Source: Longimicrobiales bacterium (GTDB lineage: Bacteria; Gemmatimonadota; Gemmatimonadetes; Longimicrobiales; Gaopeijiaceae). From it: a stretch of 64,000 nt of DNA. The notes under the pieces are model-generated. The model made no database searches. It had not been told where the DNA came from and saw only the letters and a list, made by a program, of their open reading frames with translations. The DNA lies in contig CBDDCX010000008.1 of the NCBI GenBank assembly GCA_965226375.1, positions 512,001 to 576,000 of the forward strand, read 5' to 3'. How positions within the stretch are numbered: position 1 is the stretch's first letter; every line of letters begins with the position of its first letter. Positions 14,600 through 41,792 of the stretch are shown here, one piece after another. The position numbers and the translations under genes are program-made.

Positions 14600-14750
14600 G
14601 CAAGATACGTGGAAGCCTTCTCACAAATTCCTATTACCGCAGGCGCTTCCGGAAGCAGTATACGTATAGTTGTATCGTGACCATACGTACGCCCCCGGTT
14701 CACACGTACGACCCACCCCAACACCCTCCCGCCCCAGCCTGCGCGAAAAG

Positions 14751-14907
14751 GGGAGTAGGGTGATCCGCCATCGGAATGTTGGGGGAGCGAGGCGCCGTGA
14801 CCTCTCCCGGACCCGTCTGCCGCGAAGCGGTGGTAGCGTAGCGGGGTTCGGGAGAGGTCACGGCGCCTCACTCCCGTCCACCACGAGTGAAGGATCACCC
14901 GACTCCC
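14751..14907 (-). repeat. Structured palindromic element, copy A
   Basis: 16-bp outer stem and 32-bp inner stem; 57-nt core 53/57 identical to the element at 41569-41724. Confidence 0.85.
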
Positions 14908-14912
14908 AGCGA

Positions 14913-15503
14913 CTAATCCGCGCCCTCGAAGAACGGGTTCTCTCCGGACGCGTGGTCCGTCACGTCGTGGATGACCGTGATCTCCGGAACCGCCTGGCGC
15001 ACCATGCGCTCCACGCCCTGACGGAGCGTCATGCGTGACATGGCGCATCCCTGGCAGCCGCCGCCCATCTCCAGGTAGATCTCGGTGTCTTGGACGTCTA
15101 CCAGGGTGATGACGCCGCCGTGTGAGGCGATGGCGGGGTTGATCTGGTCCTCGAGGATCTCGCGGACCTTCTGCGCCAAGGCGCCTGTGGGCGTGGTGGC
15201 GGGGGTGGTGGGGCCGGCCGCCAGCCGTACCTCGAATCCGCTTTCGTTCACCCTCTCGACGAAGTCCACCGTGGCATCTTCTAGACGCGGAGCCGTCCCC
15301 TCGTTGACCACGATCGTGAGACCGCTCACATCCAACTCGATCTCGTCGCCGTGAATCTCGTCGGATCCCACCAGGGTCAGCTCGAACTCGGGCGCTGAAG
15401 GAGTGCCACCGGAGACGGCGATTCGCAGTGCCGTGAGCTCACCGCCGCTCTGGTCCAAGTAGCTGCGCACCATTTCGAGGGCTCTGTCCGTCAGCGTCAT
15501 CAT
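14913..15503 (-). CDS. nfuA: Fe-S biogenesis protein, NfuA-like
   Basis: Cys-less A-type-carrier N-domain plus NifU domain (INPAIASHGG, GGCQGC, DVTDH..GENPF). Confidence 0.85.
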   Translation of the reverse strand: MMTLTDRALEMVRSYLDQSGGELTALRIAVSGGTPSAPEFELTLVGSDEIHGDEIELDVSGLTIVVNEGTAPRLEDATVDFVERVNESGFEVRLAAGPTTPATTPTGALAQKVREILEDQINPAIASHGGVITLVDVQDTEIYLEMGGGCQGCAMSRMTLRQGVERMVRQAVPEITVIHDVTDHASGENPFFEGAD

Positions 15504-15706
15504 CGAAGAACACTCCTGCCGGTTACGGATCCGGGCTTTCCGGGTTGGGTCGGCGCGGTATACCCGCGAATCTTTCCGGGGTTCTCCTGTCGGTTGATGA
15601 GGCGAGGGGGCGTGTCTAGCTTCCACCTCCTCGCAGGACCACCGCCGCGCCTATCGGATCGACCCAACGTCTTGGTGGCTCGCGAACTTCGGAAACGGAA
15701 CAGTAG

Positions 15707-17029
15707 ATGGCCGACGCTCAATTGATGGATAAGCTCACGTCCCTGGCCAAGCGCCGGGGATTCATCTTCCAGTCCTCCGAGATCTATGGAGGAACGGGTG
15801 CCGTTTGGGACTACGGACCCCTAGGAGTCGAGCTCAAGCGCAACGTCAAAGATCGCTGGTGGAGCACCATGGTCCATCAGCGCGACGACGTCGAGGGACT
15901 GGATGCCTCCATCCTGATGAATCCCAAGGTATGGGAGGCTTCGGGCCATGTGGACGGATTCACGGACCCGCTGGTCGAGTGCTCGGCCTGTCACCGGCGT
16001 TTCCGGGCCGATCTCCCCGAGGTGGAGAACGGACAATGTCCCACGTGCGGGACCAAGGAAGCGTTCGGTGAGCCGCGCTTGTTCAACCTCATGTTCAAGA
16101 CCTTCATGGGGCCGGTCGAGGAAGACGCGGCCGTCATCTACCTTCGCCCAGAGACGGCTCAGGGGTCGTACGTCAACTTCCTGAACGTGCAGACGTCGTC
16201 GCGGCAGAAGATCCCTTTCGGGATCGCCCAGATCGGGAAGGCGTTCCGGAACGAGATCACGCCCGGAAACTTCATCTTCCGGACCCGCGAGTTCGAACAG
16301 ATGGAGCTTCAGTTCTTCGTGGAGCCCGGTGAGGACGACGAGTGGTTAGATTACTGGATGCACGCGCGCATGGATTGGCACCTCTCCCTCGGGATCCGCA
16401 AGGAAAAACTCCGCTTCCACGAACATGGACCCGACGAGCTGGCCCACTATGCGAAGAAGGCCTTCGACATCGAGTACGAGTATCCCTTCGGCTGGAAGGA
16501 GTTCGAGGGCATCCACAACCGGACCGACTTCGATCTCTCGCGTCATCAGGAACACTCCGGCAAGAGGCTGGAGTACATCGATCCGGCCGAGGGCAAGAGG
16601 TTTGTGCCGTACGTGGTGGAGACGGCGGTTGGGGTGGACCGGACCGTTCTCGTGGCTCTGGTGGACGCCTACCGTGAGGAAGAGATCGAAGGTGACACGA
16701 GAGTGCTGCTGGCCCTGGATCCGGGATTGGCGCCGATCAAGGTTGCCGTGTTCCCCTTGGTAAAGAAGGATGGTCTCCCCGAGGTCGCCAAGAAGCTCGA
16801 TGCCGATCTTCGCGGGGCTGCGATTCCGTCGTTCTATGACGCCGCTGGGTCGATCGGGAAGCGCTACAGACGGCAGGATGAAGCGGGGACTCCGTGGTGC
16901 GTTACGGTGGACGGGCAGACCCTGGAAGACGGCACCGTCACCGTGCGTGACCGGGACACGCTGGAGCAAGTGCGCGTGAGTGCCGAGTCGGTGCCGGAAT
17001 GGGTGCGAGGACGGCTGTCCGGATCCTGA
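15707..17029 (+). CDS. glyQS: Glycine--tRNA ligase (alpha2 type)
   Basis: YLRPETAQG, FRNEITPGNFIFRTREFEQME, SIGKRYRRQDEAGTP. Confidence 0.95.
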   Translation: MADAQLMDKLTSLAKRRGFIFQSSEIYGGTGAVWDYGPLGVELKRNVKDRWWSTMVHQRDDVEGLDASILMNPKVWEASGHVDGFTDPLVECSACHRRFRADLPEVENGQCPTCGTKEAFGEPRLFNLMFKTFMGPVEEDAAVIYLRPETAQGSYVNFLNVQTSSRQKIPFGIAQIGKAFRNEITPGNFIFRTREFEQMELQFFVEPGEDDEWLDYWMHARMDWHLSLGIRKEKLRFHEHGPDELAHYAKKAFDIEYEYPFGWKEFEGIHNRTDFDLSRHQEHSGKRLEYIDPAEGKRFVPYVVETAVGVDRTVLVALVDAYREEEIEGDTRVLLALDPGLAPIKVAVFPLVKKDGLPEVAKKLDADLRGAAIPSFYDAAGSIGKRYRRQDEAGTPWCVTVDGQTLEDGTVTVRDRDTLEQVRVSAESVPEWVRGRLSGS

Positions 17030-17149
17030 CCGGACTCCTGTCAGGAGTGGACGGGTCGACGAAGGGCGCTCCGGCTCCCATGTTACCCGCTTGCTCGGAG
17101 AGGGCCTGGGCGCGCTAGAGGGCTCTTCAACCTGAATCCGGAGGCGTCG

Positions 17150-18694
17150 TTGTCTTCCAAGTCCGAAGTCTTCAGTTCTCGCTGGGGCATGCTCCTGGCC
17201 ATGCTGGGCATGGCCGTGGGCACCGGAAATATCTGGCGCTTCCCCCGTATCGCCGCGTCGAACGGTGGCGGGTCGTTCCTGGTGGCTTGGGTGGTCTTTC
17301 TCCTGCTCTGGTCGGTCCCTCTGCTGATCCTGGAGTTCGGGATGGGCAAGGCCACCCGGTCGGGCACGATCGGGGCGTTCGTGAAGACCATCGGGCCCAA
17401 GTTCGCCTGGATGGGTGCATGGGTGGCCTTCGTTGCCACCGCCATCATGTTCTACTACAGCGTTGTCATGGGATGGACCATCCGGTTCTTCCTGGCGGCG
17501 ATTATGGGAGACATCCCGTCGGCCGTTCCCGAGGCGTTCTGGGATGGCTTCGCGGGTACGCCTTGGGCTCTCGTAACGCACGTGGTTGCCATGGGGCTGG
17601 GGTTATTCGTGGTGTCCAAGGGAGTGAAGGGCATCGAGACGGCAGCCAAGATCCTGATCCCCAGCCTAATTATTCTGGTCGTCATTCTGGCCATTCGGGC
17701 GGTGACGTTGCCGGGAGCGTCCGCCGGCCTGGCATTCCTCTTCACGCCGCACTGGGCCGATCTTGCAGACTCCAAGATCTGGCTCGAGGCGCTGACCCAG
17801 AATGCATGGGACACGGGCGCCGGGTGGGGTCTGGTCCTGACGTACGCCATCTACATGAGGAGCCAGGAAGACACCGCCCTCAACGCCTTCGTGATCGGCT
17901 TCGGCAACAACTCCATGTCGCTCTTGGCCGGCATCATGGTGCTGGCGACCGTGTTTTCCGTAATGCCCGACGCTGCCGATCAGATCGTGGGCGCGGGCAA
18001 CGAGGGGCTGACCTTCATTTGGGTCCCCCAGCTGTTCGCGCTCATTCCGGGTGGGCGCTTCTTCATGTCGCTCTTCTTCCTGGCTCTCGTGTTCGCCGCC
18101 TGGACGTCACTCGTGGCCATGATCGAGCTCGCCAGCCGGATTCTGATCGATCTGGGCATGACCCGCGGCCGGGCCATCACTTTGGTAGGGACCGCAGGGA
18201 TACTTTTCGGCGCACCCAGCGCACTCAACTGGTCAGACACAGCAGGAGCCGGGCCGTTCTTCGCCAACCAGGACTGGGTGTGGGGTGTGGGGCTGATGCT
18301 CTCGGGCTTCTTCTTCGCGTTCGCCGTTCTTAAGTACGGCGTCACGCGGTGGAGAGAGCAGTTCATCAACACGGGCGACTCGGACATCCATATCGGAGCC
18401 TGGTGGGACTGGACAATCCGCTTGGTGATCGTCGAGTCGATCATTCTCATGGGCTGGTGGTTGTACCAGGCTCAAGGGGGGTCGTTCGTCGAGACATGGA
18501 CCCTGTTCTCCGCTTTCAACGTGGGCTCGGTCCTGATCCAGTGGGTGATCGCTCTCGGCCTCCTCTATTTCCTGAACGGCTGGTTGGTGGCGCGGCTTCC
18601 GGGTGCAGCCCTCGCGACCGAAGCGGGCACCGGTGGCCCTGGTCCGGTCGGGGATAGCCCGGATGCCGGTGGTGGAGGCCCGGAGGTCGGGTAG
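17150..18694 (+). CDS. Sodium-dependent transporter (NSS/SNF family)
   Basis: F.SRWG...GMAVGTGNIWRFP, GLTFIW.PQLF. Confidence 0.9.
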   Translation: MSSKSEVFSSRWGMLLAMLGMAVGTGNIWRFPRIAASNGGGSFLVAWVVFLLLWSVPLLILEFGMGKATRSGTIGAFVKTIGPKFAWMGAWVAFVATAIMFYYSVVMGWTIRFFLAAIMGDIPSAVPEAFWDGFAGTPWALVTHVVAMGLGLFVVSKGVKGIETAAKILIPSLIILVVILAIRAVTLPGASAGLAFLFTPHWADLADSKIWLEALTQNAWDTGAGWGLVLTYAIYMRSQEDTALNAFVIGFGNNSMSLLAGIMVLATVFSVMPDAADQIVGAGNEGLTFIWVPQLFALIPGGRFFMSLFFLALVFAAWTSLVAMIELASRILIDLGMTRGRAITLVGTAGILFGAPSALNWSDTAGAGPFFANQDWVWGVGLMLSGFFFAFAVLKYGVTRWREQFINTGDSDIHIGAWWDWTIRLVIVESIILMGWWLYQAQGGSFVETWTLFSAFNVGSVLIQWVIALGLLYFLNGWLVARLPGAALATEAGTGGPGPVGDSPDAGGGGPEVG

Positions 18695-18711
18695 GCCGGG
18701 CTTCGGCACTC

Positions 18712-19362
18712 ATGGCGAGGGAGTCCAGGAAGGCTAAGACGGAACGCGCAGCGGAGGTCTTCTCCCTGCTGGTGAACGAGTATCCGGATGCCCATTGTGC
18801 GCTCGATCATCTCGGCGCCTACCAGCTCGGTGTCGCGACCATCCTCTCTGCCCAGACCACGGACGAGCGGGTCAACATGGTCACGCCGGCTCTGTTCGAG
18901 CGGTACCCCACGCCCCGGGATCTGGCGAGCGCCGACCAGGCAGACGTAGAGGAGATCATCCGCTCCACCGGGTTCTTCAGAAACAAGGCCAAGAACATCA
19001 TCGGTTTTGCCCTCGGTGTGACCGAGGAGCACAACGGCGAGGTTCCCCGCACCATGGCGGATCTCAACGCGCTGCCCGGCGTCGGACGAAAGACCGCCAA
19101 CGTCATATTGGGCAATGCTTTCGGGATCGATGAGGGTGTGGTGGTAGACACGCACGTCAAGCGTATCTCGAGCCTGCTCGGATTCACTCAGGAGAAGACA
19201 CCGGAGAAGATCGAGCAGGATCTCATGGGACTCTTTCCCAGGGATAGGTGGACACTGCTTTCCCATCTCGTGATCTTCCACGGCCGGCAGGTGTGTGACG
19301 CCAGGAAACCGCGCTGCGAGGCGTGCTCCCTTTCCCACCTGTGCCCGTCGTCTAGAGTCTGA
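18712..19362 (+). CDS. nth: Endonuclease III
   Basis: LSAQTTD, LPGVGRKTAN, VDTHV and a C-x6-C-x2-C-x5-C Fe-S motif. Confidence 0.95.
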   Translation: MARESRKAKTERAAEVFSLLVNEYPDAHCALDHLGAYQLGVATILSAQTTDERVNMVTPALFERYPTPRDLASADQADVEEIIRSTGFFRNKAKNIIGFALGVTEEHNGEVPRTMADLNALPGVGRKTANVILGNAFGIDEGVVVDTHVKRISSLLGFTQEKTPEKIEQDLMGLFPRDRWTLLSHLVIFHGRQVCDARKPRCEACSLSHLCPSSRV

Positions 19363-19574
19363 CAAACGGGCCATGGGCCTCCGGCAAGAAATGGAGAACT
19401 CGGGCGTAGGAGTTAGTCGACCGGGATGTCGGAGTCAGTCGGCCTGCTTGACCCGTGCGGCTCGACGGTGGGAGCTTTGGAATGGGCCAGGGCGCCCCAT
19501 CGGCTTATGCACCCCGGGAACTGTTTCCCCATGACCCTCGATTGGACCACTGGGAGTACACGTTGAGCGAAACA

Positions 19575-20141
19575 ATGCCCGACCGGGCCGACGCGCTGGC
19601 GCTCCTCGAGAGCTGGGTAGAGAACGAAGGGCTCAGAAAGCACATGCTGGGCGTGGAGGCCACGGTGCGTCACTACGCCCGTATGCACGACGAGGACGAA
19701 GATCTGTGGGGCATGACCGGACTACTTCACGACCTGGATTGGGAAAGGTACCCGGACGAGCATCCGCATCGAGGGCTGAGGGAGCTCGAGGAACGAGGTT
19801 ATCCGATGGAGATCATTCGTGCGGTGGAGACACACGCACCCAACCGCACGGGCAAGGAGCCCGAGTCTCTTCTCGAGCGTGTTTTGTTCGCCTGTGACGA
19901 GCTCTCCGGACTCGTCTATGCGTGCTGCCTGGTCAGGCCCAACGGAATCGACGACCTGAGCCCCAAGTCGGTGACCAAGAAGCTGAAGGACAAGGCGTTC
20001 GCCGCCGGAGTCGACCGTGACGACGTTGCGCGCGGTGTGGAGCTTCTGGGAATCGAGCGGGCGGAGCACATCCAGAACGTTATCGACGGGATGAGGACCA
20101 TCGGCGACGTTCTGGGGATCCGAGCGGAGGACAAGGTCTAG
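19575..20141 (+). CDS. HD-domain phosphohydrolase
   Basis: LRKHML, GLLHDLD, LFACDELSG, KKLKDKAFAAGV.R. Confidence 0.85.
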   Translation: MPDRADALALLESWVENEGLRKHMLGVEATVRHYARMHDEDEDLWGMTGLLHDLDWERYPDEHPHRGLRELEERGYPMEIIRAVETHAPNRTGKEPESLLERVLFACDELSGLVYACCLVRPNGIDDLSPKSVTKKLKDKAFAAGVDRDDVARGVELLGIERAEHIQNVIDGMRTIGDVLGIRAEDKV

Positions 20142-22756
20142 TGTCCCGTCCGCTGGGCTCCTTCGGCAGAACACGAGTGTGCCGTAGGCTTCTCCCGCTT
20201 GTCACGCCCTTCGCCGCGCTTCTTCACGGCCAGGTCGCTGCCCAGGACGTAGAGATGCTGGCCCGCGAATACGGCACCCCCATTCCCGAAGGCTATTACA
20301 CGGAGCTTCAGCGAGATCCGAATGCTTATCGGTTCGGACGGGGCTGGCGTCCCGAAGCACGAGTCGACGCTCCTCGGCTACTCCGTAACCGTGACTCTCG
20401 CGGCGCGGCCACTTTGGGCCGCCGTGGGGGAGGTGTGAGCGGGACGTTCACGTTCCCACTCATCCTGGGGCTCTACCTGGACACGCCGGGTATCCCCAGC
20501 GGCAAGGTGGGGTGCCGCGCACCCTGTACCGTGGGCCCCCCGGCCGAGCCGCTCACGCGTGAGATCATCCAGCGCGAATTCTTCGATGGCCCCAACAGCA
20601 TTCTCAGCACGATCCCCGAGTTCTACACGGAGGTCTCGGGGGGCCGGGTAACCCTTGTGGGAGACAGCCACGACTGGTTCCAGACCAGCCTTACGGGGGC
20701 CCAGGTGACGGGAGACAGTGACGGCCTCAGCAGCACGGATATGGTCGGAGAATTCATCATCGAGATTCTCGTGAGACTCGATGACGGAGCCGTAGACTGG
20801 GGGCAGTATGACAACGACGGGCCCGATGGGGTTCCGAACTCCGGCGACGACGACGGCTTCGTAGACGTGCTCACGGTCATGCACCCGACGGCAGGAGGAG
20901 AGTGTTTCGTCAGTGGCGTTGGACGCGTCTGGTCCCACCGTTGGCAGCTCTCCGCTTCGGCCGCAGCCGCCGTAGATCCGATCTTTCACGCTTACGTGAC
21001 TCAGACTGCCTCTGCTAACGGAGGCCAGATCCTGGTCGACGACTATGCCATTGTGGCGGCGCTAGGGTGCGATGCGCAGCACGTCAACCAGATCGGTATT
21101 TTTGCGCATGAGCTGGGCCACGGATTCGGCCTTCCCGACCTGTACGCGGTGGGCGGTAGCCACGCCGGTGTGGGACGATGGGGCCTCATGGGCTCGGGCG
21201 CGTGGGGCTGCACCGGCGGGATTCCCGCGATTCCCTGCCACATGACGGCTTGGAGCAAAGAAGCTCTCGGGTGGGCCAACGTGACGACGCTCGCTCCGGA
21301 CGCCGATCTGGGTGTGATAACACTGGACCCCGTGGAAACCTCGGGAGACATCATTCGAATCGAGGCCGGGGACGGGAGCGGGGACTACCTGTTATTGGAG
21401 AATCGCCAACCCATCGGGTTCGACGTCAACCTCTTCTCGCCGGGCCTACTCGTCTGGCAGATCGACGAGGACATGGTGTCCAGCCGATGGGCCTCCAATA
21501 CCGTCAACTCGTCCTCCGGGCGTATGGGTGTCTGGCTGCGGCAGGGGGACGGCGAGAACGATTTGGCACTGGGCACGCAACGGGGCGATTCCGGTGATCC
21601 CTTCCCGGGCTCGTCGGGCCAAGACCAGTTCACGGCGGGGTCCGCTCCGGCGGCCTTTACGTTCGACGGCCTCAACGGCCAGGATGGAGTGCCCCAGGGC
21701 AGGGCTGCAGGCATAACGCTGCTCGACATCCAGCAGGTGGGTGACCAGGTGCGATTCCGCGCTCTTACCCGGTACCAGACTCTCACGCTCCAGGCTACCG
21801 GTGCGTTGGGACCCGTGCCGTTCCGGGTGGACGGGGTGGAGACCGGCGACAACCCTGCCAGCGTCGTGTCGGCACCGTTCCAGAGACATGTGATCGAGGC
21901 GGCGGGCGGAGAGGAATCGGTGGACGGCTTCCGCAACGGGTTCGTCGCATGGGACGACGGTGCTGAACGAAACCGTGAATGGACCACGGAGCTCTCCGAC
22001 GTGACGCTCATCGCGACGTACGGGAATCCTGAGGTGCGTTTCGACCTGACCCTCCAGCGTCCCGTGCCGGGAGTCGACGCCGGTCGCATCGTTACGAACC
22101 CCCCATCGGAACCGGGGTGGCTACAGCTCGGTGCAGAAGTGAGCATCGGTGTCGATACCAACATCGGCTTCGCCTTCCGGGAGTGGACTGGAGCGCTAGC
22201 CGGTCAGCCGAACCCGGCACTGATCACACTCACCGAGCCGGCGGTGGCCGGTGCCGAGTTCGACATCACGTTCGGGCTCGCCGGGGCACCCACGCTGAAC
22301 TTCGATTTCGATGGGGCTACGCCGACCTCCCTCAGGATTTCCGTGGAGAACGGAAACCCACCCGTCACCTGGCAACAGTTCGGAGAGCTTCCCTCCGGGA
22401 TGCATTCGCATGCCAACCGGGGTGTGGTCCACGGTACTCCGCGCGAGATGGGGGAATTCGATGTGACGCTGTGGGCCACGGACGCCATCGGCCTCACCGC
22501 TTCGGCTGCGCTCAGCATCTCGGTGGGCCCACCCAGCTCCGGTCTCCGGGAAATGGCCAACCAATTTCTCCTCGAACCGATGGACCCCAACCTTGCAGAC
22601 TTCCTGGACTATCAAGGCGATCGGGACGGCGAGTACGACCTGGGGGATTTTCGGGCCTGGATCGTAGGCCACCCAGAGCACCCCGCGACGCAGATGATGC
22701 GAGCCGCGGATCCCATCGTCGTCCCCCTCTTCCTCCGGAAGGAGGAGTCACGATGA
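20141..22756 (+). CDS. M6-family (immune inhibitor A-like) metalloprotease with C-terminal beta-sandwich domains
   Basis: HELGHGFGLPDLY zinc motif, WGLMGSG Met-turn, AWSKEALGW, YLLLENRQ, GLLVWQIDE. Confidence 0.85.
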   Translation: MSRPLGSFGRTRVCRRLLPLVTPFAALLHGQVAAQDVEMLAREYGTPIPEGYYTELQRDPNAYRFGRGWRPEARVDAPRLLRNRDSRGAATLGRRGGGVSGTFTFPLILGLYLDTPGIPSGKVGCRAPCTVGPPAEPLTREIIQREFFDGPNSILSTIPEFYTEVSGGRVTLVGDSHDWFQTSLTGAQVTGDSDGLSSTDMVGEFIIEILVRLDDGAVDWGQYDNDGPDGVPNSGDDDGFVDVLTVMHPTAGGECFVSGVGRVWSHRWQLSASAAAAVDPIFHAYVTQTASANGGQILVDDYAIVAALGCDAQHVNQIGIFAHELGHGFGLPDLYAVGGSHAGVGRWGLMGSGAWGCTGGIPAIPCHMTAWSKEALGWANVTTLAPDADLGVITLDPVETSGDIIRIEAGDGSGDYLLLENRQPIGFDVNLFSPGLLVWQIDEDMVSSRWASNTVNSSSGRMGVWLRQGDGENDLALGTQRGDSGDPFPGSSGQDQFTAGSAPAAFTFDGLNGQDGVPQGRAAGITLLDIQQVGDQVRFRALTRYQTLTLQATGALGPVPFRVDGVETGDNPASVVSAPFQRHVIEAAGGEESVDGFRNGFVAWDDGAERNREWTTELSDVTLIATYGNPEVRFDLTLQRPVPGVDAGRIVTNPPSEPGWLQLGAEVSIGVDTNIGFAFREWTGALAGQPNPALITLTEPAVAGAEFDITFGLAGAPTLNFDFDGATPTSLRISVENGNPPVTWQQFGELPSGMHSHANRGVVHGTPREMGEFDVTLWATDAIGLTASAALSISVGPPSSGLREMANQFLLEPMDPNLADFLDYQGDRDGEYDLGDFRAWIVGHPEHPATQMMRAADPIVVPLFLRKEESR

Positions 22757-23133
22757 GGCGGGCGCTCGTTATGGTAGCGTTGGCCTCCGGGGTGCTGGTC
22801 GGCGCATGTGACTCGGGCCCCAAGGGTCCCGGACAGCTCACCGGCAGACTGCGGTCGGGGCCGATCCCGGTGGGTGCGATTGTGCTGGAGTTTACGGGTA
22901 CCGGTATCACGGGCTTCTCCGGTGTGGGGGCGACCAAGGTTTTCTTCGCCGAGAATGAGCCCGGTGTATTCCGGGTCGTCATGGTGACTCCGACCGCGGG
23001 CGAAATGAACTTCCTGATTAGCGTCGAGGACTTGGAGGCTCCCTTGCCCACCGTCAATTCCGTCGAGGCGGTCGATTCCAACAACGGAGGCCTCGGCGAC
23101 CTCACCGGAATCTCGGTCGAGGTGAAGCATTAG
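22753..23133 (+). CDS. Small lipoprotein
   Basis: ATGA overlap with the protease stop, AGGAGG RBS, lipobox VGA-C, beta-rich body. Confidence 0.75.
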   Translation: MRRALVMVALASGVLVGACDSGPKGPGQLTGRLRSGPIPVGAIVLEFTGTGITGFSGVGATKVFFAENEPGVFRVVMVTPTAGEMNFLISVEDLEAPLPTVNSVEAVDSNNGGLGDLTGISVEVKH

Positions 23134-23169
23134 CTTGCGTCCCGAGCTTGTCGGTCTGAGAATACGCTC

Positions 23170-23280
23170 ATGACTACATCCACTGTGATCACCATGGTTC
23201 TGGTCTTGGGCTTCGTCTGGGGCGGCTTCGCGTTCTTCCTTTTGACGGCGGTCCGCAAGGAGTCCGATAAGGGCGATTGA
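23170..23280 (+). CDS. MetS-like NSS transporter small subunit (36 aa)
   Basis: MTTSTVITMVLVLGFVWGGFAFFLLTAVRKESDKGD: one TM helix with WGG and a charged tail; below the ORF-track length cut-off. Confidence 0.7.
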   Translation: MTTSTVITMVLVLGFVWGGFAFFLLTAVRKESDKGD

Positions 23281-23427
23281 GCGGGCCTCGAGACCACCCG
23301 CGGCGCCTCCCCCAGCCGCCTTGTGCTGCATCGCCAGATCCGACACCTTTCGCCGCGATGTACGCTCCGCTTTTCCTACCGTGGACCCGCCCCGCTCGTG
23401 GCGGCCCAACCCCCCCCTGTTCAGCCA

Positions 23428-26731
<3,304 letters not shown>

Positions 26732-26739
<8 letters not shown>

Positions 26740-27706: not shown

Positions 27707-27799
27707 GACGATCGTCGGGTGGGCTCCTTTCCAGGCCCCCGGGGGTAGTTCATAGGATAGCTAATCCACGCTCGCACCCCGATCAGTGAAGGCATCGCG

Positions 27800-29347: not shown

Positions 29348-29373
29348 CAACAACCCAAAGCGATGGGAGTGAC

Positions 29374-30570: not shown

Positions 30571-30596
30571 CCCCACCCTCGGTACCTCTGGCATCC

Positions 30597-33053: not shown

Positions 33054-33099
33054 GCGGGTCCGTGCTCGTGTTGATCTAGTGTCCTGTCCCAGAAATACG

Positions 33100-33116
33100 C
33101 TGGCATTGATCTCGCT
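33100..33116 (+). promoter_or_regulatory. Possible sigma54 -24/-12 promoter
   Basis: CTGGCATTGATCTCGCT with GG-N10-GC spacing, upstream of the HNH gene; could be a chance match. Confidence 0.25.
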
Positions 33117-33269
33117 ACGCTGCGATCGTCTCGCGGTCAACTCGGCACTCAAATGAAGCGTGGAGGTCGCTCTAGCGGTTGTGGGCGTGTCATCATATCT
33201 GTTCAGGGGGTCTTGGTGTGCCAGGGAGGCGTGCCCCCCATGGGAATCGTCGGTGAGGGGAATGCCAGA

Positions 33270-33845
33270 ATGGGTTGCCTGGCCCTGAACGCGTCATACG
33301 AGCCGCTGACCATCATCCCGGCTCGCCGGGCTATTCGGTTGGTGCTCGATCGAAAAGCGGAGATCCTGGAGGCTGACGACCATCGTGCCTTCCGATCGCC
33401 GCGAAGAGCACTGCCTTTCCCGACGGTCATTCGTTTGGTCCGCTACGTACACGTGCCGAAGGGATTCCGACGGCAGGTCACCAACACTTTCCTGTTCGCG
33501 CGCGACAACTACCAATGCCAGTACTGTGGACGTCACCGTGGTCAGCTCAAGGGTCGGCAGTTTCTGACCAGGGACCATGTCCTCCCCATGTCCCGGGGTG
33601 GGGACAACTCATGGCAGAATGTGGTGACGTCGTGTTCGCCCTGTAACAACCGGAAGGGCGATCGTCTGCCCCGGGAGGCGGGCATGGCGCTCTTGGTGCA
33701 GCCTACGGAACCGAACTACGTCCGCCTCGTTTGGACGGTCCGTCGTGTGACGGAGGCACAGGCGAAGTACATCCGCATGTTCTATGGTGAGGATGTGCTC
33801 TCAACACTCAGGGCGGGACGCATAACGGTGCGCGAACAGGCCTGA
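33270..33845 (+). CDS. HNH endonuclease (McrA-like)
   Basis: LALNASYEPL, RDNYQCQYCG, DHVLP.SRGG..SW.N.V..C..CN..K. Confidence 0.9.
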   Translation: MGCLALNASYEPLTIIPARRAIRLVLDRKAEILEADDHRAFRSPRRALPFPTVIRLVRYVHVPKGFRRQVTNTFLFARDNYQCQYCGRHRGQLKGRQFLTRDHVLPMSRGGDNSWQNVVTSCSPCNNRKGDRLPREAGMALLVQPTEPNYVRLVWTVRRVTEAQAKYIRMFYGEDVLSTLRAGRITVREQA

Positions 33846-33916
33846 GCCTCGTCGCGGATGCGCCCATCGGAGTGAGGGTGCTCTCGGGTCTCTTCCGGCG
33901 CGCCAGATAAGAGCGG

Positions 33917-34393
33917 CTAGTCGTCCAACCAGGCGTAGGGTCGTTCGTAGAACTGACCCGAGCCACGCACCGTTCCGGCCTCGGTGTGTTCTTTCCACCG
34001 GATGATCCAGCCCCGGTTCTCGTCCTGAATGACCTTGAAAGAGAAGCCCGGAAGCTCCTGACGCTCGGCGAGGAATCGAGCGAGTGGGGCCGGCAGGTTG
34101 GAGACTCCCTCCACCTCGGCATGCTGGTGGTCCGCCATGATCTCCTCACGGATCTTCGACTCGCTCAACTTGAGCGCCCGAATGGCTTCCTCCACCGCCC
34201 CGGCGACTTCGGACAGACCTTCGTCTGGTGAACTTCCGGTCCGCCGCCGGATGGACCGGATTATCGCCCCTGTCCCGGGAGCGGAAAGATCATCACGGAT
34301 CTGCTGAAGTTGTCGGAGGAGGCGTGCGTGCAGATGTAATAGTTGCCCGTACTCTCGCTTCGCCTCAGCTGTCTTGGGGGTACTTCCGGTCAT
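33917..34393 (-). CDS. Hypothetical protein
   Basis: Helical N-half and aromatic C-terminus (RGW..RWKE...GQFYERPYAWLDD); fills the gap between neighbours. Confidence 0.6.
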   Translation of the reverse strand: MTGSTPKTAEAKREYGQLLHLHARLLRQLQQIRDDLSAPGTGAIIRSIRRRTGSSPDEGLSEVAGAVEEAIRALKLSESKIREEIMADHQHAEVEGVSNLPAPLARFLAERQELPGFSFKVIQDENRGWIIRWKEHTEAGTVRGSGQFYERPYAWLDD

Positions 34394-34524
34394 TCGCTCA
34401 TCTGATTGATCGGGCGGTGGTGGCATCGCGAACCCCGTAAGATGGCCACGAATCAGGACATAAGTCGAGAGTTTCGTACTCGACCGTTTGGGAGGGGCAT
34501 TGGCGAACCCGGGCCGACGGGACC

Positions 34525-35106
34525 ATGTTCAGGTCCATGGACAGTAGCGATGTACCGAACGAAGAGGGTGTGGGGCCGAAGCCCACGCCGATAAGGGAGG
34601 TGGTAGGAGAGCCACGCCCTAACCCCCGCCGGCGCGCGGACGAGCCCCATGTCGGAGATTCGCCAGAGCAGCGTGCGCGGGGTCAGCGAGAGCGCCCGAA
34701 GGGCTCCCGCGACAAGGGGCGTTCGGTAGGGAGGGGAAGAGATCGAGGGCAGGGGCGGACCGCGCCTCGTTCGGTGCGTGCCGGGTTGGACGGCCAGGCC
34801 TCGAAACCGACCGCGGTGCAAGATCTCCCGTCGCGTGAGTTCGTGAGCGAGGGCGTCGAATGGATCCTCCGTCTCTCTGGCCGGAGTTCAACGGGGTCGC
34901 CGTCCGATCCAGGGGCTCCGTTGCTCCATCTCATGTTCTACAGAGCTGATGAGCCACTAGTAGAGGTATGTGAGGCTCTGATTCCGGGTGATTCGATCGA
35001 TCGCCTTTTTGAGGCGGATCTGGCCGCGGTGGTCGAATCGGCGAGGAAAGCGACAATGCCGGAGGAGCCCTCGAAGGTCCCTCCGACACCCAGTCCCAGC
35101 GAGTAA
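34525..35106 (+). CDS. Hypothetical protein
   Basis: Disordered Arg-rich N-half and globular-looking C-half; start uncertain. Confidence 0.5.
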   Translation: MFRSMDSSDVPNEEGVGPKPTPIREVVGEPRPNPRRRADEPHVGDSPEQRARGQRERPKGSRDKGRSVGRGRDRGQGRTAPRSVRAGLDGQASKPTAVQDLPSREFVSEGVEWILRLSGRSSTGSPSDPGAPLLHLMFYRADEPLVEVCEALIPGDSIDRLFEADLAAVVESARKATMPEEPSKVPPTPSPSE

Positions 35107-35331
35107 GGCCTCATTCGAGACCAGTCTGCTCGTTGGCAAGCTCGAGGTCGTCGTAACCGATTCGGTGTTCCCAGTTAACAATTCCGTGTCTCGCTGACTC
35201 ACATAGGCGCGTCAGGACCTGGTGGGGGCGGGGCCTCGGACACAGGGCTCAGGGTTTTGCACCGAAACCTCGCTTTCGTGAGATTCAGGAAGACGCAGGG
35301 ACTCAACACCAGGGGCGGTGGCGGTGTCTCC

Positions 35332-35907
35332 ATGGATGTGACCGAACAAGTGCCAGACGTAGATCTGGTCCGCCGGGCGTGCGCCGGTGACGGTGCAGCC
35401 TTCGGAGGGCTCGTCGAGCGTTACATGCGAGCCGCCTACGCCGTGGCGCTATCGGTGACCGGAAGACACGAGGATGCTGAAGACGCCGCACAGGAAGCCT
35501 TTATGGTGGCGCTCGAGCGGATCGAAGAGTGCAGGAGCCCCGATCGGTTCGCGGGGTGGCTCATGACCATCGTCAGGAATCGGTCCCGCAACCTCGTTCG
35601 GAGGGAAGTGCTAAGGGGAACGGATGAGGTGCCAGATGGGGCTTCGGCAAAGGGGCCGACGCCCGAGCGGGCTGCCGAGCAGATCGAGCTCGAGGAGCGG
35701 CTGTCGAAGGCCCTTGGAGAGCTGCCGGAGGTCCAGAGAGAGATTGTGTTGCTGCACGACCTCGAGGGGTGGAAGCATAGGGAGATCGCCGAACGGTTGG
35801 AAATTCCATCCGGCACGGTGCGCTCCCATCTCCACTTCGCGAGGAAAGCGCTACAAAAGGATTTGAGCCTGTCCGAACATAGGACGGATACTAGGGAGAG
35901 AGCATGA
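35332..35907 (+). CDS. ECF sigma-70 factor
   Basis: D..AF..LVERY, DAEDAAQEAF, F.GWL..I.RN, EIA..L.IP.GTVRS.LH.AR. Confidence 0.9.
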   Translation: MDVTEQVPDVDLVRRACAGDGAAFGGLVERYMRAAYAVALSVTGRHEDAEDAAQEAFMVALERIEECRSPDRFAGWLMTIVRNRSRNLVRREVLRGTDEVPDGASAKGPTPERAAEQIELEERLSKALGELPEVQREIVLLHDLEGWKHREIAERLEIPSGTVRSHLHFARKALQKDLSLSEHRTDTRERA

Positions 35908-36320
35908 CGAACAACGGTCGAGGGAGCGGTCCGGGCCTTCACGGGGACGAGGGGCCTTTGGCATCCCGCTACGACCTCGGAGTACTCGATCCGGGCCGCA
36001 CAGACCCCGGGTATTGGGCCCGATTCCGGTCACATGTGATGACGAGGGCCGCAGACGAACTCGCCAGACGACGTGTAATGGCGGACATCACAGTGCTGGA
36101 GCTTGCGCAGTCGTGGGCCAGGGTACTGGTGCCGGCAGCGGCCGTTGCCGCGGCGGTGGGGGCGGTGATGCTTTCCCAAGGTCGTGTACCCGGGTCACTG
36201 GCGATCGCAGGTCCAGAAGAAGTCCTGACCCAGGAGCTCGAGGATCGGACCCTGCCCGACTTCATGGCACTGGAAGAAGCGGAAGAGGGCGCCTTCCTGT
36301 TGGCTGGAGGGACCTACTGA
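35904..36320 (+). CDS. Putative anti-sigma factor
   Basis: ATGA overlap with the sigma gene; single TM helix. Confidence 0.6.
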   Translation: MTNNGRGSGPGLHGDEGPLASRYDLGVLDPGRTDPGYWARFRSHVMTRAADELARRRVMADITVLELAQSWARVLVPAAAVAAAVGAVMLSQGRVPGSLAIAGPEEVLTQELEDRTLPDFMALEEAEEGAFLLAGGTY

Positions 36321-36739
36321 TGCCGATTAGAAGAATGTTGCGGGCAAAGGTAGTGGCGGGAGCCGCTTTGACGCTGCTCTTTGGAAGCGGCGTTGTGGTT
36401 GGTCTGGCGTGGGACGAGACGGCCAGCGCCAGCACTCCCGAGGCGACACGCACGGAGGAACCGGAGACGGACCGCGACCGAAACAACGGAAGGGTCATCG
36501 ATAGGGTCGGGCTCAGCGAGGTACAGAATGCGTCTGTCGACTCGCTCGTGGCCTACTATCGGGGACCGATGCGGGACTTGAATGCCGAGTTCAGGCCTCG
36601 CTACCGAGCCGTCATCGGTGACCTCAGGGAAGCGATCAAAGAGATCCTGACCGACGAGCAGCGCGCGATGTACGAAGTGCTTCTTGAAGAGCACGACGCG
36701 AAGCACCACTCACGGCGCTCGAGGGACTCGAAACAGTAA
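36320..36739 (+). CDS. Periplasmic helical protein (Spy/CpxP-like)
   Basis: TGATG coupling, N-terminal TM, LSEVQ and ILTDEQR (LTxxQ-like) motifs. Confidence 0.6.
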   Translation: MPIRRMLRAKVVAGAALTLLFGSGVVVGLAWDETASASTPEATRTEEPETDRDRNNGRVIDRVGLSEVQNASVDSLVAYYRGPMRDLNAEFRPRYRAVIGDLREAIKEILTDEQRAMYEVLLEEHDAKHHSRRSRDSKQ

Positions 36740-36744
36740 TCCTC

Positions 36745-38055
36745 ATGACCATTCGATTGACACTTACGCTCGGCGCCTTGATGGCCCTGAGCACGCCGGG
36801 GAGCGCGCAGGAGCGGCCTCTCCTCGATCCGGGGGTGACCCGGGTAACTCTGGACGATGCCATTGCCCAGGCTCTGATACTGAGCCCGCTGATGGCCCAG
36901 TCCGAGCAGTCGGTCATCAACGCGGGGGAGTCCAAGAGAACGGCTGTTGGAGCGTTCATCCCAACGTTGTCCACGAGCTCCGGTATGTCGGTCCGAAGCG
37001 CGGACCAGTTCGACCCGGGAACGAATCGGCTCGTTTCGGGGAGCGCGAGCTCCTATAACGCAGGCCTCAACGCGCGCTACGACATCTTCCGTGGTGGCCA
37101 GCGATTCTCGGACCTCAGTCGGGCCAGGGCCGACCTGACGGCTGCCGAGTCACGCCGCCAGGATCAGCGATTCGGTGTCATTCTACAGACCAAGAACCTG
37201 TTCTTCCAGGCACTGCGGCAGGCAGAGCTTCTAGAGGTGGCACGGCGCCGAATTGCGCAGGCGAACCAGAGCCTCGAGATGACCCGGGCCCAAGTTCTCG
37301 TGGGCGCGGGGACCGTGTCGGACACCTTGAGGGCTCGCCTCGAGTACATCAACGCCCGTCAGGCGGTACTCCGCGCCGAGGTGGCGACGCGGGCCGCTCG
37401 CTTTGGTCTTGGACGACAGATCGGAGAAGCTGCGCCCGTAATTCCCGAGGCCCCCGGTGACCTTTCTCCCCGTCCGCTTCCCATGGTCGAGGCTGAGGTA
37501 CTGCAGATCGCCGAGTCCCTGGCTCCGTCGGTCATGGCCGCCCAAGCAGCCACGTTGGCGGCCCAACAGGCCTACTCTTCGTCCAAGAGTGTCTATATCC
37601 CGACCGTGAGCCTGAGCAGCGGGTACAACTGGTCGAATCAGCAAGCTTCGTTCGGTGGTGGACGGACGAGCTGGAACCTGAATTTCAACCTCAGCTACCC
37701 GCTTTTCAACGGGTTCAGCCGTGAAGCGAGCGTTGTGCGGGCTGAGTATTCGACACGGCTCGCGCGTATCCAAGAGGACGATGCCCGGCTGGGTTCGCGC
37801 CAAGCGACCGACGCCGCATTGAGAGATTTGGAGACGGCGGAGTTGGCAATCGATATTGCGCAGGAAGCGGTGGCTGTTGCGGACGAGGACCTGAGGGTCA
37901 CTCGGGCGAGGTATGAAGCGGACGTGGCGATCATCCTGGACGTCATCACGAGTCAGGTCGCCTCTGATCAGGCGAGGGTGGACCTCGTGAACGCGCGCTA
38001 CGACTACGGCCTGGCTCGCGCGGAACTCGAGGCGATTCTGGGGAGGGAACTGTGA
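36745..38055 (+). CDS. TolC-family outer membrane protein
   Basis: Signal peptide, TLDDAI..AL, duplicated outer-membrane-efflux helical repeats. Confidence 0.9.
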
Positions 38056-38759
38056 GCGATCTGATCATTCGCACCAAGGGGCTCAAGAAGTACTACGTCT
38101 TGGGTGCCGAGACGGTGCGAGCGCTGAGGGGGGTGGATCTGGATATCCGCCCGGGCGAATTCGTTGCGATCATGGGGCCCTCGGGGAGCGGCAAGTCGAC
38201 GTTCATGAACCTGATCGGATGCCTCGACACCCCGACGGAAGGCGAGTACTGGCTAAACGGCGTTCCGGTCAGTGACCTCTCCGACGACGAGCTCGCACGC
38301 ATTCGCAACCGGGAGATCGGATTCGTCTTCCAAACCTTCAACCTTCTGCCGAGGGCCACGGCACTTCACAACGTGGAGCTCCCGCTCATCTACGCCGGAG
38401 TCGCCGCCAAGGAGCGCAGGCAGCGGGCCGAGGATAAACTCGAGCTTGTCGGTCTGGCAGATCGGATGGATCACCGCCCGCCGGAGCTTTCGGGTGGGCA
38501 GAGACAGAGGGTGGCCGTGGCGAGGGCGTTGGTAAACAACCCAGCGCTTCTCCTCGCGGATGAGCCGACCGGCAACCTCGACTCGGTGACGAGCGAGGAG
38601 ATCATGGCCGTGTTCGTTGAGTTGAACAGACAGGGCCAGACCCTCATCATCGTCACGCACGAACATGACATCGCAGAATATACCAAGCGGCAGGTCCACC
38701 TTCACGACGGCATAATCGCCAAGGACTTCCTGCACGAGCCGACGGGGATACACGTATGA
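38052..38759 (+). CDS. ABC transporter ATPase (MacB/LolD-like)
   Basis: [35 protein letters not shown]. Confidence 0.93.
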
Positions 38760-40339
38760 CCGCCTCCAGAATCATGAGATCTTGGGGAGCCGTGCTCGCC
38801 CTACCGCTCGCTCTCGCGTGCGGAACCACCGAGGCTGAAGAGGCCCCGACCGTACAGACCGCCGTGGTCGAGCGCGGAGACCTGATGATCACCGCCGAGG
38901 CGACCGGCAACGTGGAGCCTGTCCGCAAGGTCGAGGTCAAGTCCAAGGCGTCCGGCGAGATCTTGCGACTCCATGTCGACATCGGCGACCAGGTCGAGCC
39001 TGGAGCCCTCCTTGCAGAGGTCGACCCCAGGGACGTCCGGAACGCATCAGCGCAGGCTGAGGCCGATCTGGAGGTGTCCCAGGCCCGGCTGGACATCGCC
39101 CTGGCCCAGCTCGGACGTTCCGAAGAGCTCCTGGCTTCCGGCGTGATCTCGATGCAGGAGCATGAGAGCAAGAACCTGGAGTTCGCCAACGCCCAAGCTA
39201 CGCACGTGAAGGCGCTGACAAACCACGAGTTGGCTCAGCTTCGTCTACAGGACGTGACGATTCGGGCGCCGATGGCCGGGACCATCCTCGAGAAGAACGT
39301 CGAGGAAGGTCAGGTCATCCAGTCGGCTTCTCAGAACGTGTCGGGTGGCACGGTGCTTCTGATCATGGCTAATCTGCAAGAAATGCAGGTACGGACGCTC
39401 GTAGACGAGACGGATATGGGGGAGATCCGTGCCGGTATGCGGGCCGTGGTCACGGTCGAGGCTTACCCGGACCGGCCCTTCGTTGGAGAGGTTGAGAAAA
39501 TCGAGCCTCAGGCCGTGGTCCAGCAGAACGTGACCATGTTTCCCGTCATCGTTCGGCTGGACAACGGGTCCGGGCTCCTCAAGCCCGGAATGAACGCCGA
39601 GGTCGAAGTGGAGATCGCCGAGGCTCCGTCGGTGCTGCTGATCCCCAACGCTGCCGTGGTTACCCCGCAGGAGGCGGTGCCCGCGGCAATGGTCCTCGGG
39701 CTTCCGGAGGACGCGGTCGACATGCGGGGTATGTTTGCCGGCATGGGCGGCGGCCGAGGTGGCCCCGGGTTCGGTGGGCAGCGCTCTGGGCAGGGTGGTG
39801 ACGCCCGTGGAGAAAGAGGCGGCCGACAGGGTGCCACACCCGGAGCGGGAACAGGGGCTGCGCGCCCAGATGGTGGACAAGGGCGGCCGGGCGCGGGGAT
39901 CGCTGGTGGGGACCGGGCCGGTCTGGACTCGATCCGAGCCCGGGTGGCGAGGGGTGAGATTTCCCAAGACTCGGCACGAGCGATATTCCAGCGAAGACGA
40001 GCAGCTACGGGTGAGGGGACTGGCGGGCCCGGCCAGGGTTTCGGACGCCTGCCCGGAGATCAAGGCCCTGGCGAGGCCCCACTGCAGCAGTCACGGCGTG
40101 CCGTCGTCTTCGTGATGATGCAGGACGGGACGATCGAACCGCGTGCGGTGATGATCGGATTGAACGACTGGGACTACACTCAGGTGGTGATTGGGGTCGA
40201 GGAGGGTGAGCAGGTGGCCCTCATCGGCGCCGCCCAATTGAGGGCGACGCAGGACGCGTTCCTGGAGCGGATTCGGTCCCGGACGTCCCCCTTCGGGGGC
40301 GGTGGCCCCGGAAGTGGCGGCGGCCGCGGGCGACGGTAG
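38756..40339 (+). CDS. Efflux periplasmic adaptor (MacA-like lipoprotein)
   Basis: Lipobox ALA-C, IRAPMAG, LKPGMNA; Gly/Arg-rich insertion. Confidence 0.88.
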
Positions 40340-40342
40340 TCC

Positions 40343-41557
40343 ATGCTCATCCGAGAGATCCTCTGGGTAGCGTTGGGTGCGGTTCGGGCGAACGCGCTCC
40401 GCTCCTTCTTGACCACGCTGGGCATCATCATCGGCGTCTCAGCCGTGATCGCCATGGTGGCGCTGGGTGAGGGGGCTCAGCGTCGAGTCGAAGAGCAGAT
40501 ATCGAGGATGGGCACGAACGTGCTCACGATCAGCCCGGGGCAGCGGTATTTCGGTGGTGTCTCCACGGGTGATACGGAGGACCTCACCGTGGAGGATGCC
40601 GAGGCCCTTCGGGACGAGAGCGGCGGGCTGCTGAGCATCTCTCCGATGGTGAGCTCCCGTGTTCAAATCGCCTATCTCCGCTGGAATTCGAGCAACCAGG
40701 TCCGAGGGATTTGGCCGGCCTACTTCGACATGTACAGCCTGCATGTTGAACACGGCGAGGCCTTCAACCGGGGGCACGTCCAGGGAAGGCGCCGTGTGGC
40801 GGTGCTGGGGTATGCCGTTCCCGAGTCATTGGGGACGCCGGCGGCCGTGCTCGTAGGCAAGAGGATCCAGATCCGTGGGCAGCCGTTCGAGGTGGTAGGC
40901 GTCATGGAAGAGAAGGGCGACGCCGGCTTCTTCCGTCCGGACGACGAGGTCTTCATTCCGACCTCGACCGCTCAGTTCCGGGTGGGCGGTGGACGCCGCA
41001 GGCTTTCTTCTATCTACGCCCAGGTACCATCCACCGACGCCATGGACCGCGCCTTTGCCGAGATCGACCGCATCCTGCGGCGTGAGCACAGGGTTAGGCC
41101 CGGAGAGAACACCGACTTCAGTATCCGGAACTCGAGCGATCTTGTCGCCACGTTCAACGAGACCACCCAGACATTCACGATGCTTCTCGCGGGCATCGCG
41201 GCCATCAGCCTGATCGTGGGCGGCATCGGCATCATGAACATCATGCTGGTGAGCGTTACCGAGCGGACCCGCGAGATCGGTGTCCGGAAGGCACTCGGCG
41301 CCACGCGGAGGGCGATCCTCTTCCAGTTCCTCATCGAGGCCCTGGTTCTGTGCATCCTGGGGGGCATCCTGGGCGTCCTCGTGGGTGTGGGTGGGGCGGA
41401 GGCCCTTACGCGCTTCGCCGACTGGGAGACTGCCGTGGCAGTTGAGTCGGTCGTGTTGGCTCTGGCCTTTTCCGCCGGCATCGGCCTGTTCTTCGGAATT
41501 TGGCCCGCCCAGCGAGCGGCCAAGTTGGATCCCATCGACGCCTTACGCCACGAATAG
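40343..41557 (+). CDS. MacB-type ABC permease
   Basis: RSFLT.LGIIIGV, GGIGIMNIMLVSVTERTREIG.RKALGA, A..LDPIDALR.E. Confidence 0.93.
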   Translation: MLIREILWVALGAVRANALRSFLTTLGIIIGVSAVIAMVALGEGAQRRVEEQISRMGTNVLTISPGQRYFGGVSTGDTEDLTVEDAEALRDESGGLLSISPMVSSRVQIAYLRWNSSNQVRGIWPAYFDMYSLHVEHGEAFNRGHVQGRRRVAVLGYAVPESLGTPAAVLVGKRIQIRGQPFEVVGVMEEKGDAGFFRPDDEVFIPTSTAQFRVGGGRRRLSSIYAQVPSTDAMDRAFAEIDRILRREHRVRPGENTDFSIRNSSDLVATFNETTQTFTMLLAGIAAISLIVGGIGIMNIMLVSVTERTREIGVRKALGATRRAILFQFLIEALVLCILGGILGVLVGVGGAEALTRFADWETAVAVESVVLALAFSAGIGLFFGIWPAQRAAKLDPIDALRHE

Positions 41558-41568
41558 ACTGCGCCGCA

Positions 41569-41724
41569 GGGGGGCGGCGACCTCGCTTTGGCATGGTAGG
41601 TCGTTGGGAGGAGATATGGCCTCTCCCGAACCCCGCTTCGGTACCACCGCTTCGCGGCAGATGGGTTCGGGAGAGGCCATATCTCCTCCCAACGCGGGCT
41701 TTAGTCGCGAGGACCCCGCTCCCC
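41569..41724 (+). repeat. Structured palindromic element, copy B
   Basis: Perfect 32-bp inverted repeat (41602-41633 / 41663-41694), imperfect 18-bp outer stem, core shared with copy A. Confidence 0.85.
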
Positions 41725-41792
41725 AGCGGCTTATGGAAGGCTTGGGCTGGGTAGGTGGCTGAGCAGCCGGCAAACGTCCTCCCTGCCAGCTC

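Follow-up and report, generated by a model that had tools for sequence, protein, structure and literature searches.

A REP/BIME-like family of two-eared hairpins in Longimicrobiales, best paired on the antisense strand and probably spreading as single-stranded DNA

What are the long hairpins that stand directly behind stop codons in a Longimicrobiales genome, and in which strand does their structure form? The question is raised by a stretch of 64,000 nt from a Longimicrobiales bacterium (contig CBDDCX010000008.1, positions 512,001 to 576,000; hereafter the window), in which a sequence-only reading had described two such hairpins. It proposed either an undescribed structured RNA of the 3' untranslated region (3'-UTR) or an element resembling repetitive extragenic palindromes (REPs) or miniature inverted-repeat transposable elements (MITEs). 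The second branch of this proposal stood, whereas the RNA as primary role fared badly. We consider it rather probable that the hairpins form a family similar to REPs and bacterial interspersed mosaic elements (BIMEs), that their arms pair better on the strand opposite to the host mRNA than on the mRNA-like one, that they likely spread as non-autonomous single-stranded DNA (ssDNA), and that their two-eared head is read by an enzyme, as we predict. This view is built on what could be read directly from the genomes, namely that the copies form a family, which strand pairs, that dimers face inward, that sites can be filled or empty, that copies nest at the tops of older stems and that they are placed in short 3' gaps. 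The modules of the window and their host genes are as follows (G000 is the genome of the window, C8 its contig).

14722..14740, minus strand: G/T-rich tail motif behind module A, common to the family
14751..14907, minus strand: module A, whole long hairpin as on the mRNA strand, 157 nt
14783..14875, strand not applicable: module A, inner stem (32 bp) and head, equal to G000:C8:526783-526875
14815..14843, plus strand: module A head on the folding strand, a 7-bp ear with GAA loop and a 2-bp ear with GTA loop
14913..15503, minus strand: nfuA (NifU and Fe-S_biosyn), host gene of module A
40343..41557, plus strand: MacB/FtsX ABC permease gene, host gene of module B
41569..41724, plus strand: module B, whole long hairpin as on the mRNA strand, 156 nt
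41602..41694, strand not applicable: module B, perfect 32-bp inner stem and head
41634..41662, minus strand: module B head on the folding strand, with GAA ear loops
41738..41758, plus strand: tail motif behind module B
41797..41906, minus strand: module C, facing module B (stem 41807-41899, head 41839-41867)
41903..43414, minus strand: gene of a PDZ-domain protein, host gene of module C, convergent with the permease gene

Both elements described earlier are real and lie where they had been placed: module A begins 5 nt past the nfuA stop codon and module B 11 nt past that of the permease gene. Their cores are identical at 53 of 57 positions, a similar motif follows each of them, and the architecture of outer stem, internal loop, 32-bp inner stem and 29-nt head folds as claimed (z score of about -10 for the sense strands of A and B, with 0 of 200 shuffles as stable). 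The inner stem is perfect in B and has two non-Watson-Crick pairs in A. Two features had been overlooked. A covariance model of the family matched A, B and C and nothing else in the window, C being a third copy that faces B, and the head contains a second mini-hairpin besides the small one noted before; in module A the head is a three-way junction on the folding strand. Module C, which spans GTAG...CTAC and takes in the stop of the PDZ gene, has CGCG(G) on both sides (CGCG at 41793-41796 and 41907-41910). GTAG also stands at 41596-41599, two bases ahead of the foot of the inner stem of module B. The exact head pattern occurred eight times in G000 and not at all in the reversed control.

The wobble pairs indicate which strand folds. 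In module A, it is the plus strand, opposite to the mRNA, that accommodates wobble pairs and GNA loops, and the same holds for the family: 36 diverse heads have their 252 larger-ear cells all paired on that opposite strand. Within this ear, G.T was the commonest pair at one position (GU 23, GC 10, AU 3) and A.C never occurred, although the search pattern permitted either; at two positions G.T, G-C and A-T alternate. Across 182 modules, ear mismatches were G.T on the opposite strand in 186 cases and on the mRNA-like strand in 2. The long stems followed in two of the subtypes, with distinct mismatch events of 16 versus 1 (R type) and 11 versus 1 (S type) for the opposite and the mRNA-like strand; the pooled count, with a scoring tolerant of both mismatch classes, was 52 versus 26. 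Measured against shuffled sequences, folding of the opposite strand surpassed what composition would give in 30 of 31 young copies and in 14 of 20 old ones. The earlier description of the elements as sense-wise after stop codons held for their position (10 of 11 copies in G000), but had missed that pairing favours the other strand.

The loops are in line with this strand. On the opposite strand the ears read GC-GNA-GC, with GAA in 141, GCA in 17, GTA in 8, GGA in 1 and other loops in 12 cases for the ear loops, and GAA in 96, GTA in 12 and GCA in 3 cases for the small ear (n = 116), counts that are partly set by the search patterns used; on the sense strand the loops are UUC, UAC or UGC. In the majority subtype the internal loop below the head places GNA against GGA on the opposite strand, where we presume that tandem G.A pairs form. 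In modules after a stop codon the folding strand is the template strand, so the structure of the family would most simply be single-stranded DNA. According to PMC13037366, GCGNAGC forms a DNA mini-hairpin of exceptional stability, far above that of the RNA counterpart tested, and GNA-type mini-hairpins are reported there at phage priming sites and in N4 promoter hairpins.

The covariation noted in the first reading holds, and it is unusually clean: the stems drift and still pair. Among nine A/B-subtype copies (the truncated L296 excluded), 18 of 26 stem pairs, or 60 cells, had changes in both partners, and changes in one partner were few; 0 of 500 shuffles matched this, a result that is no probability because the copies are related. 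The young R and L subfamilies had 27 and 23 compensated cells compared with approximately 3.5 and 2.5 expected if the changes were independent, numbers that are inflated by the kinship of the copies, and their uncompensated changes were mostly in the outer arm (40 versus 14 and 24 versus 4, respectively). This pattern would fit copying from arm to arm as well as selection; therefore, covariation alone does not show RNA. Signs that the inner arm repeats the end of the host gene in inverted form were limited to module C and, weakly, tuf, and this idea was dropped.

The family unit is a near-perfect stem of 20-32 bp, variable in sequence between copies and topped by the conserved head of two mini-hairpins, a 7-8 bp ear and a 2-bp ear. 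The inner hairpin is 79-131 nt long (median 91); it is often lengthened by a looser outer stem followed by the G/T-rich tail, whose pattern was matched in 49 of 116 modules. The expectation of further copies was borne out: G000 contains 11 and its relative G011 contains 45. The G000 copies stand behind tuf (twice), rpoC, secA, dnaK, nfuA, the permease gene, the PDZ gene, a gene for a peptidase of family S51 and one gene without a name; the remaining copy faces a gene start. These hosts come from our own gene calls, tuf, rpoC, secA and dnaK being named from recognisable sequence and not by a database call. All counts given here cover related sequences, not independent events. Ten of the 11 G000 copies lie within 535 kb (C8:250000-786000) of the 4.2-Mb genome (8 of 9 sites, P ~ 3e-5). 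This region also holds ribosomal operons and, judged by GC skew and dnaA, does not lie at the origin. The two tuf genes are followed by one and the same stretch of about 350 bp with its module (G000:C8:716370-716720 and 737430-737780), which congeners lack at tufA; gene conversion from tufB or assembly collapse would account for it.

The family model matched 23 of 150 genomes (13 of 81 genera) of one Longimicrobiales-related family and none of 149 other Gemmatimonadota genomes. In an all-species scan, the true copies among the matches listed were in Longimicrobiales/Gemmatimonadota records; 11 pattern matches outside the Gemmatimonadota had no flanking stem and scores of at most 6.5, and were taken as chance. 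Metagenomes contained 66 loci, and viral contigs gave 0 matches. Within genus g10, strong copies numbered 45 in G011, 2-22 in ten congeners and 0 in one.

The arrangement and the site polymorphism of these copies point to mobility. In G011, 30 of the 45 modules form 15 inward-facing pairs that are 215-471 bp apart, usually of one L and one R type, and no outward-facing pair exists at that range. Eight pairs fill a convergent gap from stop to stop. Two loci had an empty gap of 0-32 nt in every congener with the same neighbour gene (6 of 6 and 3 of 3, respectively); a third locus has one such congener, which carries a single module. In the genus of the window, the tufA site is empty in G001 and G002, module C is absent from both, and the nfuA site is filled in G000, holds a degenerate copy in G002 and is empty in G001. 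The nfuA site is also filled in G338 and G266. Behind the permease gene, an orthologous module is present in G001, G002, G338 and genus g10. Module mosaics differ between genomes at the same locus, and the copy at the nfuA site is reversed in L147. Ten of 36 R-type outer ends join the top of the stem of another, older module (3 of 13 flagged rows were dropped as host sequence); stem-top junctions recur with short shared letters, outer arms are tandemly duplicated, and dimers collapse by central deletion. Between inward-facing modules, the gap of the permease and PDZ genes contains differing passengers: cyclase and pilin-like genes, a GNAT pair, IS256 and an AAA ATPase. Toxin-antitoxin pairs recur beside modules (L079, L080, L113, L127, L128, L341), which suggests that these gaps are insertion hot spots.

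The placement after stop codons can be understood from the same units. Of 109 assignable modules, 82 face a stop codon within 110 nt, 2 a stop further off and 25 a gene start, and in G011 the ratio was 33 facing a stop to 12 not, with 3 singles between divergent genes. For REPs, PMC3733652 states that conv-REPs lie less than 20 bp from both 3' ends and that GTAG often supplies the TAG stop. A two-ended unit that enters a short 3' gap produces an orientation bias by itself, and we attribute the sense-wise placement mostly to such entries, as known for REPs. GT[AG]G was found at the stem foot in 47 of 50 R, 50 of 60 L, 1 of 16 S and 13 of 54 other modules (control for the last group: 33 of 432 windows), and near the foot in all three window copies.

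Several observations weigh against this reading. The GT[AG]G foot is on the strand without wobble pairs (11 of 180 on the folding strand). CGCG(G) flanks module C, but at two filled/empty sites of G011 no target duplication was seen. The long stems of the L type are only weakly biased (10 versus 7 distinct events), and old or other copies, A and B among the old, have no long-stem strand bias (20 versus 18). Different genera retain copies behind one set of core genes (tuf, rpoC, secA, dnaK, nfuA, permease), with stems rewritten yet paired, and the outer stems of the permease orthologues are conserved with compensation; this persistence suggests host selection. Finally, a partner enzyme of the kind expected was not found: Y1_Tnp was absent from the carriers G000, G001, G002, G011 and G309 and from 11 of 12 genus g10 genomes, the one match being an IS200 without modules, and Pfam detected no HUH protein, reverse transcriptase (RT) or nuclease in 150 of 189 clusters of neighbour proteins (the other 39 clusters, longer than 430 amino acids, were left out).

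The clusters covered were housekeeping and accessory genes, toxin-antitoxin pairs and two unrelated insertion-sequence (IS) transposases. An HUH-like motif pattern gave 0 matches in our gene calls for G000. The search for a gene of the REP-associated tyrosine transposase (RAYT/TnpA) or GIY-YIG type flanked by copies, which had been suggested earlier, yielded neither a Y1/RAYT gene nor a stand-alone GIY-YIG gene, the only GIY-YIG open frames being 409-917 amino acids long and UvrC-like by size. Other candidates were rejected: the DUF559 match examined, one of two, is a Vsr-type gene beside a methylase and not linked to modules; tyrosine recombinases are many with none singled out, a XerC/D-like gene being simply one host gene; and the Y2 (IS91-type) candidate consists of seven identical elements in G011 with ends unrelated to modules. 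No module was found at 12 Y2 and 15 IS110 loci, so the modules are not IS91/ISCR or IS110 ends. The seven elements (tyrosine recombinase plus Y2; L352, L355, L357, L359-L362) have a right end that abuts GTTAG, an attC-like junction. RTs are present in four of five carrier genomes; no module stands beside the five RT loci tested, and none beside a stand-alone 413-amino-acid RT of non-intron look and low GC in L195 (G002:C3:198610). The genome of G011, assembled as a single contig and richest in copies, the youngest included, has no RVT_1 candidate. Since no linked enzyme was found, the enzyme step of the model is one that we infer.

How do other explanations compare? A structured RNA in the sense transcript, acting as stabiliser, processing site or terminator substitute, would account for the 10 of 11 and 82 of 109 copies facing a nearby stop, for the highly expressed genes among the hosts, for the compensated outer stems at the permease, for the stable folding of the sense RNA (z ~ -10) and for the old stems without strand bias. 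However, the wobbles of the ears are on the other strand and the sense loops are UUC, UAC or UGC; in G011, 12 of the 45 modules face no stop and three lie between divergent genes; 25 of the 109 assignable modules point at a gene start, congeners differ in whether a site is filled, and the nfuA copy of L147 is reversed. No U-tailed terminator (a short GC stem plus a U run) was found at A, B or C, and Rfam gave no match above the gathering threshold in the window, only generic sub-threshold hairpin matches at 41540-41920. As the primary function we consider this RNA improbable. It is rather unlikely, too, that the modules are an ssDNA signal serving the host (a single-strand-origin or priming-like site, or a loading site for topoisomerase or helicase) at strongly transcribed gene ends, spread by gene conversion and not by a selfish enzyme. 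This idea draws on the GNA mini-hairpins of DNA type at natural priming sites and in N4 promoters (PMC13037366), the CS-6 hexamer (described in PMC10378824) in the folding-strand head of 21 of 181 modules, A included, the long retention at core genes and the clustering within 535 kb. Yet 160 of 181 modules have no CS-6, the family is missing from 127 of 150 genomes of the family and 149 of 149 others of the phylum, copy number ranges from 0 to 45 within one genus, and no bias to the lagging-strand template was seen on C8 (4 versus 6).

Two further explanations concern the way in which copies arise. Long palindromes might break at the hairpin and be repaired by microhomology from other copies, giving mosaics, nests and arm duplications without any dedicated enzyme. 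The short shared letters at stem-top junctions, the tandem outer-arm duplications, the central dimer deletions and the lack of an enzyme found are consistent with this. A single contig (depth 4) of run X6, one of four runs whose contigs were compared at the window, also swaps module C for a short fold-back join: 41791 is joined to 41903 via five letters matching the reverse strand, deleting 41792-41902. A second contig of that run retains module C, and as a single-contig join the deletion is too weak to use. Repair on its own leaves both the entry into empty gaps without homology and the conserved, strand-specific head unexplained, and we regard it as quite improbable. Highly unlikely, in our view, is that the sense transcript serves an RT as template for a cDNA hairpin, like retron multicopy single-stranded DNA or UG27 products. 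This would account for sense placement combined with an antisense DNA fold, follows the logic of UG27 units (about 150 nt, diverse in sequence, conserved in structure and templating cDNA hairpins, in bioRxiv 10.64898/2026.09.22.753630) and finds RTs in four of five carriers. Against it stand the lack of an RVT_1 candidate in G011, the absence of modules from the five RT loci, and copies that are dispersed instead of arrayed with an RT, some of them between divergent genes.

We therefore return to the REP/BIME-like mobile ssDNA. In this model, a trans-acting ssDNA cut-and-join enzyme, of HUH type by analogy, would move units of one or two modules into short intergenic gaps, and the survivors would be those insertions that spare coding sequence and the next promoter, so that the nearer module would always be sense-wise after the stop. 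The conserved two-eared head is predicted to be read by the candidate DNA-processing enzyme, which agrees with the earlier suggestion of a protein-recognised loop; the arms would likely be kept complementary by arm-to-arm copying together with selection on the fold. The window copies A, B and C are old, locus-fixed members. They may be kept for a secondary effect at the mRNA 3' end or as a host DNA signal; since the long stems of old copies, A and B among them, are without strand bias, a secondary mRNA role is conceivable for these. A bolder proposal, which we put forward tentatively and consider doubtful, is a RAYT-independent class of mobile ssDNA built on sheared G.A motifs (two GNA ears plus the GNA/GGA internal loop) on the template strand, whose candidate enzyme would cut stem tops, target its own older copies and gene 3' gaps, regenerate one arm from the other and make these gaps hot spots for passenger genes.

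REP-like repeats for which no transposase is known pose an open problem, the CGTC REPs among them (PMC3733652). The present family offers a sharply defined substrate, a branched ssDNA fold of known strand, and close relatives with 0-45 copies and filled/empty alleles make the missing enzyme searchable by profiling and pull-down. Moreover, wobble pairs identified a covarying hairpin with the look of a 3'-UTR RNA as a structure belonging to the other DNA strand, and RNA-motif surveys can reuse this cheap test.

Some neighbouring features were recorded as well. An IS1595-family transposase lies at 44342-45328 of the window, 1 kb from the host gene of module C, with no tie to the modules seen. A TACGTA-N16-TACGTA palindrome is at 14659-14689; about 14 like sites exist in G000, mostly intergenic and upstream of genes, and others within some mosaics (L043, L079, L088, L106, L280), and it resembles a transcription-factor operator. 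Other long post-stop hairpins with unrelated heads were seen in G000 (C8:958932 and 959209, an inward-facing pair; C6:220402; C2:48469; C8:45109) and may be further families of the same kind.

Among known systems, integron attC sites share the reliance on structure over sequence, the folding of the bottom strand as ssDNA and the position just after a stop codon. The family differs from them by its core host genes, the lack of a cassette array and the branched head; the AAC/GTT R-box that we take to define the attC stem base was not seen when the ends were read by eye. The TwoAYGGAY motif (RF01731) is likewise a multi-copy element with two hairpins on a basal stem, but has different loops, and Rfam gave no match. 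UG27 RT units, as outlined in bioRxiv 10.64898/2026.09.22.753630, are similar in size (about 150 nt), sequence diversity and structural conservation; our family has neither RT nor array. Plasmid single-strand origins with CS-6 (PMC10378824) resemble it as long ssDNA hairpins with the hexamer apical in one subtype, whereas the family is chromosomal and multi-copy, with the hexamer in 21 of 181 modules only and no rep gene or double-strand origin.

Bacterial MITEs (ERIC, YPAL, NEMIS, RUP and Bcr1, as described in PMC3733652) are also non-coding elements of 70-300 bp near coding ends with filled/empty polymorphism. In contrast to these, the centre is conserved and the arms are variable in our family, which has no conserved terminal inverted repeats of 15-30 bp, no consistent target duplication and two differing dimer ends. 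Separate repeats were noted as well. G000 has a CTAG-bounded MITE family of 100-170 bp with terminal repeats of 22-27 bp and internal deletions (e.g. C8:105872, C8:1746866, C5:229714, C2:39443). More than 30 G000 sites (e.g. C8:9255, C8:42178) share, bordering a high-copy gene, one and the same 128-bp stretch with an inverted repeat, probably a single insertion-sequence family. Another MITE-like family has CTGTTGAAG-type end repeats (L037:1928-1970; G000 C8:135856, C8:802591); its copies are numerous in genus g10, and G000 has 11 of its ends.

The closest likeness is to REPs, BIMEs and REPINs. The family is undescribed in the literature as far as searched; the published REP consensus sequences of families GTAG-1..24 and CGTC-1..4 in figures and supplements, which were not compared, may bear on its novelty. 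With a unit of 79-131 nt (inner hairpin) to about 200 nt, it exceeds the 20-40 bp palindrome of a REP (PMC3733652), and it differs in its branched two-ear head, in stems that vary between copies and in wobble pairs on the strand without the GT[AG]G foot, unlike canonical REPs. In the carriers searched no cognate Y1 transposase flanked by repeats was found; CGTC REPs, too, lack one according to the same paper. Like the GTAG- and CGTC-tagged repeats of PMC3733652 and PMC6006769, the modules are extragenic palindromes next to 3' ends, single or in inverted dimers and mosaics; they fill convergent gaps, sometimes supply the stop codon, carry GT[AG]G near the foot in many copies and lose the centre of dimers by deletion. 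This is the organisation of BIMEs and REPINs: inverted dimers and mosaics in unidirectional or convergent gaps near 3' ends.

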